Shown piece by piece: positions 21,043 to 22,581 of a DNA stretch of 27,388 nt. The stretch's first letter is position 1. The number at the start of each line of letters is the position of its first letter. Source of the DNA: a virus (lineage: Duplodnaviria > Heunggongvirae > Uroviricota > Caudoviricetes). A program made the position numbers and the translations under genes. Under the pieces are notes generated by a model. That model did no database searches and had not been told where the DNA came from. It was given only the letters and a program-made list of their open reading frames with translations. Where the stretch lies: the IMG/VR virus record IMGVR_UViG_2563366848_000006. One strand, written 5' to 3'.

Positions 21043-21347
21043 TAGCTAATCAACAAAGCTAAGGTTAGTAATTAAGGAGTTCTCCACGGGTGAGGTGGAG
21101 TGCGTGCGCCGGACACGGGTGCGCATCCGGAACTGACAGTTTACTGAAAGGATATTTCCCTGAAAAGTCAGACCATAACGCGAAAGCGCACGGCGAGGTA
21201 GCTGGTTCATAGATAGCCTGTCGTTAAATTTTCGTCGACCGTGCGCTTCCGGTTGTGGCAACCCGCGAAATGGCGCGGCGGTAAGTATGGCGGGGTTATT
21301 CCTTCCCCGTTGAGGACACCGGGTTGTCAGGTTGACCATACGCTTAA

Positions 21348-22542
21348 GGAAGGTGCGAATAAGCGGGGAAATTCTTCTCGGCTGACTCAGTCATTTCATT
21401 TCTTCATGTTTGAGCCGATTTTTTCTCCCGTAAATGCCTTGAATCAGCCTATTTAGACCGTTTCTTCGCCATTTAAGGCGTTATCCCCAGTTTTTAGTGA
21501 GATCTCTCCCACTGACGTATCATTTGGTCCGCCCGAAACAGGTTGGCCAGCGTGAATAACATCGCCAGTTGGTTATCGTTTTTCAGCAACCCCTTGTATC
21601 TGGCTTTCACGAAGCCGAACTGTCGCTTGATGATGCGAAATGGGTGCTCCACCTTGGCCCGGATGCTGGCTTTCATGGATTCGATGTTGATGGCCGTTTT
21701 GTTCTTGCGTGGATGCTGTTTCAAGGTTCTTACCTTGCCGGGGCGCTCGGCGATCAGCCAGTCCACATCCACCTCGGCCAGCTCCTCGCGCTGTGGCGCC
21801 CCTTGGTAGCCGGCATCGGCTGAGACAAATTGCTCCTCTCCATGCAGCAGATTACCCAGCTGATTGAGGTCATGCTCGTTGGCCGCGGTGGTGACCAGGC
21901 TGTGGGTCAGGCCACTCTTGGCATCGACACCAATGTGGGCCTTCATGCCAAAGTGCCACTGATTGCCTTTCTTGGTCTGATGCATCTCCGGATCGCGTTG
22001 CTGCTCTTTGTTCTTGGTCGAGCTGGGTGCCTCAATGATGGTGGCATCGACCAAGGTGCCTTGAGTCATCATGACGCCTGCTTCGGCCAGCCAGCGATTG
22101 ATGGTCTTGAACAATTGGCGGGCCAGTTGATGCTGCTCCAGCAGGTGGCGGAAATTCATGATGGTGGTGCGGTCAGGCAAGGCGCTATCCAGGGATAACC
22201 GGGCAAACAGACGCATGGAGGCGATTTCGTACAGAGCATCTTCCATCGCGCCATCGCTCAGGTTGTACCAATGCTGCATGCAGTGAATGCGTAGCATGGT
22301 TTCCAGCGGATAAGGTCGCCGGCCATTACCAGCCTTGGGGTAAAACGGCTCGATGACTTCCACCATGTTTTGCCATGGCAGAATCTGCTCCATGCGGGAC
22401 AAGAAAATCTCTTTTCTGGTCTGACGGCGCTTACTGCTGAATTCACTGTCGGCGAAGGTAAGTTGATGACTCATGATGAACCCTGTTCCATGGCTCCAGA
22501 TGACAAACATGATCTCATATCAGGGACTTGTTCGCACCTTCC
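21348..22542 (-). mobile_element. IS5 insertion sequence, 1195 bp, intact, flanked by 4-bp TTAA target-site duplication (21344-21347 and 22543-22546)
   Basis: Both termini read GGAAGGTGCGAA (plus at 21348; reverse complement ending at 22542); length is exactly 1195 bp; contains the InsH transposase ORF; identical TTAA on both flanks. Confidence 0.95.
21494..22510 (-). CDS. insH: IS5 transposase InsH
   Basis: ORF track 338 aa [70 protein letters not shown]..., recognised as IS5 InsH (annotated start may be the internal MSHQLTF). Confidence 0.95.
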
Positions 22543-22581
22543 TTAAGTGACAACCCCGCTGCAACGCCCTCTGTTATCAAT

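Follow-up and report, generated by a model that had tools for sequence, protein, structure and literature searches.

An intact IS5 element lies within the precursor of the small RNA DicF in the Qin-type lambdoid prophage analyzed here, a stretch of 27,388 nucleotides that we call the window. In the 190-nt DicF precursor, the RNase III cut lies approximately 100 nt upstream of the element, and the 5' end made by RNase E lies 39 nt downstream of it. The TTAA that it occupies has been entered by IS5-family elements in at least three independent events and in both orientations. We think it probable that this is a recent polar insertion after which DicF, DicB, and YdfD are no longer coupled to the promoter that DicA controls, a reading in which the polarity and the phenotypic consequence are what we infer. 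Both the position inside the DicF precursor and the recurrent, independent hits on the same TTAA were missed by the original prediction.

The window is nearly identical to the corresponding prophage of E. coli B379 (NZ_CP090456.1), whose isolate source was human pus from Hangzhou. Across 26,441 aligned positions it differs from the B379 RefSeq chromosome at eight single bases (window positions 2744, 4278, 14596, 15241, 19874, 20378, 23597, and 25169), none of which is within IS5. With these differences, the window must stem from another assembly or a very close relative and not from the B379 record itself. Window coordinates are those of our B379 locus (L001) plus 947. The order dicC, dicA, ydfA, ydfB, ydfC, IS5, dicB, ydfD, exonuclease, xis, and int, which had been read from the window alone, is also that of the RefSeq annotation of B379, where an IS5 transposase is already annotated between ydfC and dicB. 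The genes are:

19621-19851, minus strand: dicC, immunity region, intact (open reading frame list and B379 annotation)
19935-20342, plus strand: dicA, immunity region, intact (open reading frame list and B379 annotation)
20509-20664, plus strand: ydfA, in the part of the dicBF operon nearest to PdicB and still connected to it
20666-20794, plus strand: ydfB, in the part of the dicBF operon nearest to PdicB and still connected to it
20824-21042, plus strand: ydfC, in the part of the dicBF operon nearest to PdicB and still connected to it
22809-22997, plus strand: dicB, 3' of IS5 (open reading frame list and B379 annotation)
22994-23185, plus strand: ydfD, 3' of IS5 (open reading frame list and B379 annotation)
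23278-25749, plus strand: exonuclease, intact open reading frame (B379 annotation; Pfam Rv2179c-like)
25822-26073, plus strand: excisionase (xis), intact open reading frame (B379 annotation; Pfam DUF1233)
26108-27388, plus strand: integrase (int), intact open reading frame (B379 annotation; Pfam Arm-DNA-bind_2 and Phage_integrase)

The exonuclease, xis, and int reading frames are all intact in the window, and in this the Qin prophage of K-12 presumably differs from it. Elsewhere in the window, a full-length Rfam match to the sok antitoxin (104 bits) was found on the minus strand at 15761-15932 with no intact Hok-size reading frame beside it. It directly adjoins a 437-aa reading frame (14374-15687) whose counterpart in the RefSeq record of B379 is labeled a partial ISNCY transposase, and it looks like a hok/sok remnant that is not annotated in B379. 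Matches to the cspA thermoregulator, also on the minus strand, at 8523-8915 and 5628-6013 (159 and 109 bits) cover cspB and cspI together with their leaders, which are ordinary features of Qin-type prophages.

We assigned the inserted element to IS5 on the basis of a length of approximately 1195 bp and 16-bp imperfect terminal inverted repeats of the form GGAAGGTGCGAA(T/C)AAG, together with a single reading frame for a DDE transposase and a 4-bp duplication of YTAR, the target motif of IS5 (PMC5009759). All of these were found, and in each the element is the same as standard IS5:

21348-22542, minus strand (that of the transposase): IS5, 1195 bp, from the sequence
21344-21347, no strand: left TTAA of the 4-bp target-site duplication, from the sequence and from empty-site genomes with a single TTAA
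22543-22546, no strand: right TTAA of the 4-bp target-site duplication, from the sequence
21494-22510, minus strand: ins5A transposase reading frame, 338 aa, from the open reading frame list, with PF01609 and PF05598
21494-22474, minus strand: ins5A in its 326-aa RefSeq form (WP_000019400.1), from the annotation of B379

The ins5A reading frame is uninterrupted and matches the Pfam families PF01609 (5.3e-35) and PF05598 (3.7e-21). Copies annotated as IS5 in many E. coli genomes, which are of the active type, match it from end to end at 100% identity. Its terminal repeats agree at 15 of 16 positions (GGAAGGTGCGAATAAG versus GGAAGGTGCGAACAAG), and both end sequences are identical across all eight IS5 and ISKpn26 copies compared (seven besides that of the window). 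The transposase gene has its 5' end at IRL (22527-22542), which points toward dicF, and ydfC is on the side of the IRR end (GGAAGGTGCGAATAAG, 21348-21363). The junctions read ...CCATACGC-TTAA, then GGAAGGTGCGAATAAG...CTTGTTCGCACCTTCC of the element, then TTAA-GTGACAACCCC..., and the k-mers that mark the filled site are CCATACGCTTAAGGAAGGTGCG and CGCACCTTCCTTAAGTGACAACCCC. The duplication is limited to these 4 bp, beyond which the flanks differ. The original prediction was of an intact, full-length 1195-bp IS5 with perfect termini, identical TTAA flanks, and a transposase antisense to the operon. We found the same integrity, length, and flanks, and the same orientation, with a minus-strand ins5A in a plus-strand operon; the termini are canonical but not literally perfect. 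Transcripts of the operon enter the element antisense to ins5A.

A 58-codon reading frame on the plus strand (22370-22546) leaves IS5 via the IRL end and takes its stop from the TAA of the target duplication. We considered whether it could be ins5C with an outward promoter and dropped this idea, since ins5CB starts at the IRR side and its promoter is negligible (PMC11677980). The reading frame matches neither ins5C nor ins5B as placed in that paper and is probably meaningless.

The window allele resembles nmpC::IS5 in DLP-12, where flanking host transcription also reads into IS5 within a defective lambdoid prophage (PMC11677980). It differs from IS5 insertions in coding genes of E. coli prophages and chromosomes in that its target is an untranslated precursor of a small RNA.

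We reconstructed the empty site in silico by deleting IS5 and one TTAA, and searched the resulting 800 bp against complete genomes. It was 100% identical over its whole length to many of them, including ATCC 8739, C, W, 042, and the K-12 derivative DH5alpha, so that the check proposed with the original prediction gave the single TTAA of an uninterrupted operon. By contrast, the filled site (1,999 bp at full length and 100% identity) occurred in one of 5,426 complete genomes, that of B379. Because the empty site is widespread and the filled allele was found in one genome, we conclude that the insertion is real, lineage-specific, and recent, as had been supposed from the perfect duplication. IS elements often cause misassembly and this allele is nearly unique, which would fit a repeat copy misplaced during assembly. 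However, the 4-bp duplication is exact and removal of IS5 restores a perfectly matching empty site. The closed B379 chromosome, eight SNPs away from the window, has the same structure, and in other assemblies the identical site is occupied by IS5-family elements flanked by duplicated TTAA. We regard an assembly artefact as extremely improbable.

The position of the element is best understood from how DicF is made in K-12. There, DicF is processed from the dicBp transcript that starts upstream of ydfA (Ragunathan et al. 2023, PMC10448788), in agreement with the processing assumed when the insertion was first noted. A 190-nt species receives its 5' end from RNase III and the 53-nt DicF from RNase E, and evidence for an internal or other promoter was not found (PMC10448788). 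We placed the RNase III cut in the window by comparing how long the two species are (190 nt and 53 nt), as the published numbering (813/814) is not directly mappable. The elements of the precursor are:

21170-21260, plus strand: predicted long helix with the inferred RNase III cut (at about 21246-21250), from the native fold, intact and upstream of IS5
21321-21329, plus strand: 5' arm GGGTTGTCA of a 9-bp hairpin with the TTAA target in its loop, from the native fold and the sequence
22548-22556, plus strand: 3' arm TGACAACCC of the same hairpin, now split from the 5' arm by IS5
22582-22634, plus strand: DicF, 53-nt form, with the U-run of its terminator after it (Rfam RF00039 at 22583-22634)

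The coordinates of DicF are those of the 53-nt sequence that we take to be K-12 DicF. This sequence is also displayed in a supplementary figure of PMC10448788. The Rfam model RF00039 matched over its full length (1-52) with 76.7 bits against a gathering score of 48 (E = 1.5e-15). An intrinsic terminator follows, with a hairpin of -15.9 kcal/mol and then UUUUU. The score, the terminator, and the location between ydfC and dicB in an operon controlled by DicA and DicC identify this sequence as DicF. The gap between IS5 and DicF is 39 nt, the same distance as that given in the original prediction, which had also placed the element between ydfC and dicF.

The native spacer between ydfC and dicF (21043-21347 plus 22547-22581) is approximately 340 nt long, untranslated, and G+C-rich. 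When folded with DicF and the terminator as a native segment of 409 nt it is predicted to be highly structured (-147.8 kcal/mol), with the helix at about 21170-21260, whose 3' arm holds the inferred RNase III cut, and with the target within the hairpin GGGTTGTCA(N19)TGACAACCC. The sequence of the 190-nt region in Fig. S1 of PMC10448788 spans the native ...accauacgcuuaagugacaacccc..., including TTAA. The operon around the site is the same as in the K-12 Qin prophage in which DicF biogenesis was studied (Faubladier 1990; Ragunathan 2023), and 800 bp of it are 100% identical to DH5alpha. The window and K-12 also share DicF, its terminator, and the upstream helix, all three of which IS5 leaves untouched. 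Unlike in K-12 Qin, the RNase III and RNase E sites of the window are separated by an additional 1,199 bp. Thus, the 190-nt species cannot form as such.

We expect the insertion to be polar because DicF, dicB, and ydfD, which have no known promoter of their own, lie behind 1.2 kb of mostly untranslated RNA. Long untranslated RNA is a classic substrate of Rho. We propose that IS5 transposed recently, in the lineage of B379, into the TTAA of the untranslated dicBF spacer of a Qin-type prophage. The additional 1.2 kb, entered antisense to the transposase and largely untranslated, would then act as a polar block through Rho-dependent termination, possibly together with a weak intrinsic terminator near the IRR end. 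Expression of DicF, DicB, and YdfD under the control of DicA and Rem would be lowered or abolished, ydfABC would remain expressed and, like the RNase III site, connected to PdicB, and the net effect would be that a toxic division-inhibitor module is disarmed. The same operon is interrupted in other natural alleles, with IS5 within dicB or ISKpn26 within ydfB, which fits this reading. On the operon strand, a hairpin followed by U6 occurs 30-70 nt inside IS5, and at -9.9 kcal/mol (z = -2) it is too weak to call a terminator. Base composition (C versus G), used as a proxy for Rho loading, was uninformative and gave no clear loading site.

IS5 is not an absolute barrier to transcription, because transcripts in the sense direction of ins5A traverse the whole element with little loss (PMC11894529). 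Transcription that enters at IRR, as it does here, runs in the sense direction of the small genes ins5C and ins5B, and an external promoter at that end affects ins5CB-dependent transposition, which indicates that transcripts enter there (PMC11677980). Our scan found no strong intrinsic terminator on the plus strand of IS5, and the native 39-nt leader next to the RNase E site, DicF, and its terminator are unchanged. These points would allow the insertion to be regulatory-neutral. PdicB transcripts would cross IS5 and reach dicB, RNase E would still release the 53-nt DicF, and the 190-nt RNase III species alone would be replaced, by one of approximately 1.39 kb. We find this unlikely, given that 1.2 kb of mostly untranslated RNA has been added to an already long untranslated spacer, that PMC11677980 cites reports of terminator-like sequences within IS5, and that in K-12 most transcripts already end at the dicF terminator and longer ones are rare (PMC10448788). 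Antitermination, either N-like or RNA-based, in a lambdoid operon of the PL type could also suppress polarity, and the ydfC-dicF spacer is a possible cis-acting antitermination RNA.

The original prediction offered as an alternative that an outward promoter derived from IS5 drives the downstream genes. Low-level, DicA-independent DicF and DicB could in principle arise by read-out from ins5CB or by an enhancer-like effect of IS5 on a cryptic downstream promoter. In the orientation of the window the ins5CB operon reads toward dicF (PMC11677980), an IS5 gene does so in both orientations seen at this TTAA, and any read-out transcript could mature, as DicF requires processing by RNase E alone. IS5 also weakly raised downstream expression in a chromosomal context (PMC5526668). 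In the same study, however, reporters with 600-bp IS ends had strong activity from IS2 and IS3 and not from IS5, and the internal promoters of ins5CB and ins5A are reported to be negligible (PMC11677980). Activation of glpFK and fucAO by IS5 needs ins5A to be co-directional with the target operon and uses the IB region at the 3' end of IS5 or the fusion promoter Pfsn (PMC11894529), whereas in the window the two lie on opposite strands, ins5A on the minus strand. Two consensus scans of the plus strand from 22300 to 22810 found no sigma-70-like site between IS5 and dicB, although weak or non-sigma-70 promoters escape such scans. A promoter upstream of dicB, which would count against a polar block, was reportedly suggested by Cam et al. 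1988, as cited in PMC10448788. Constitutive DicF or DicB would, moreover, be toxic (PMC5069750). Altogether an IS5-derived outward promoter for dicF and dicB is not supported, and we consider rewiring of these genes by the insertion to be decidedly improbable. The arrangement is like that of IS5 at glpFK, fucAO, bglGFB, and flhDC, studied in the Saier, Schnetz/Rak, and Wood laboratories, in that one precise YTAR upstream of a silent, regulated unit is reused (PMC5493358, PMC11894529). It is unlike glpFK and fucAO in that ins5A is antisense and a downstream promoter is not evident.

We return to the polar insertion that we favor. The original prediction extended its effect to xis and int, on the view that these depend on PdicB. 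This part was not upheld, as transcripts beyond ydfD were not detected in K-12 (PMC10448788) and a terminator-like site follows ydfD at 23223-23236 in the window; an effect of IS5 on xis and int has no support. Both DicF and DicB are toxic when expressed ectopically (PMC5069750, PMC10448788) and dicBp fires spontaneously in about 1% of cells (PMC10448788). It is therefore plausible that the allele is neutral or mildly beneficial.

Other genomes also carry insertions in this operon. We scanned for sequences in which an IS5-family end precedes DicF by 15-45 nt and recovered two IMG/VR contigs, and a search with the junctions recovered three more complete genomes. The scan for an IS5-family end at this distance from DicF had no match in the metagenome contigs. 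The alleles, besides that of the window, are:

F95 (L007 4016-5218): IS5, 99.7% identical, same TTAA with TTAA duplication, orientation opposite to the window
SCPM-O-B-9504 (L006 4016-5219) and SCPM-O-B-7615: ISKpn26, 92% identical, same TTAA with TTAA duplication, orientation opposite to the window
IMG/VR UViG 2585427790 (L004 1147-2405) and 2585427782 (L005 163-1421): ISKpn26, same dicF-side junction of TTAA and GTGACAACCCC, orientation opposite to the window
2017C-4173W12 (L002 6467-7669): IS5, TTAA in codon 9 of dicB with TTAA duplication, same orientation as the window, antisense to the operon
VTB97432v (L003 6000-7203): ISKpn26, CTAA at the 3' end of ydfB with CTAA duplication, same orientation as the window, antisense to the operon

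The match of LR-58-2, seen as a search match only, was identical to that of 2017C-4173W12. In the two IMG/VR contigs the element is bordered on its other side by CTAA, beyond which the DNA is unrelated to ydfC, and these mismatched flanks imply a later IS-mediated deletion or recombination. The junctions in F95 and the SCPM strains read ...ACCATACGCTTAA, the element, and TTAAGTGACAACCCC, with a TTAA and a duplication identical to those of the window. Their flanks are 91-97% identical to ours, and the prophages themselves are different lambdoid prophages; that of F95 is at the potC site and has kil downstream, and that of the SCPM strains has a RacR-type repressor. The published mechanisms of read-through and activation from the IB end could apply in the orientation of F95 and the SCPM strains.

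We searched for insertions in either orientation up to 400 bp from the site. This region contains 16 YTAR sites, and 3 of the 4 events found there were at this one TTAA. Under uniform use of sites such recurrence has a probability of roughly P = 0.01, subject to ascertainment. Mutation-accumulation lines had no hot spots for IS5 at the genome scale (PMC5009759). The TTAA looks like a preferred or a selected target. Its reuse could reflect a preference of the element for this target locally, or else selection for alleles in which DicF and DicB are uncoupled and ydfABC is spared. Orientation-specific activation is not the common cause, because both orientations occur. At the duplex-destabilized (SIDD) hot spots described in PMC5493358 one would expect AT-rich DNA, whereas by composition the window site is not AT-rich; its AT content is 42-52% against an operon mean of 54%, making it comparatively G+C-rich, with AT content a crude proxy for destabilization of the duplex. 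In a separate observation, the Rac-type prophages of 23AR1101 (L008 4000-5203) and DX6 (L009 4000-5203) have ISKpn26 at the same CTAA, immediately after ydaF and upstream of sieB and kilR, in opposite orientations in the two strains. Here, too, IS5-family elements have used a single site of a lambdoid early-left operon more than once, a second case of such reuse.

A more far-reaching proposal, which we make tentatively and hold to be unlikely, is that the TTAA is a hot spot driven by structure or selection, at which lineages repeatedly switch off DicF and DicB, or rewire them where the element is co-directional, and keep ydfABC. In the window PdicB would also transcribe ins5C and ins5B, coupling derepression to transposition of IS5. 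If this is true, derepression of the prophage by Rem, heat, urea, or stationary phase would be coupled to stimulated IS5 transposition.

The window allele is a new allele of a well-known type of event and otherwise a routine IS insertion. For insertion sequences, IS5 among them, at dicB or dicF, we found only apparently incidental mentions in the literature searched, as judged from titles and term counts. Its interest, which is modest, lies in the position between the two processing sites of a small RNA precursor and in the repeated, independent use of the same target. That IS5 and ISKpn26 have repeatedly entered one TTAA, in three different prophages and in either orientation, points to a preferred insertion target or to selection that has acted recurrently against a toxic module. 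The sense and antisense alleles are naturally matched and allow polarity of IS5 to be compared with read-through. Division, metabolism, and phage resistance of the host are all under the influence of DicF and DicB, which rank among the best-studied regulators encoded by prophages. The allele is a ready-made test of whether DicF and DicB depend fully on dicBp and of whether dicA is still essential once they are uncoupled from it.
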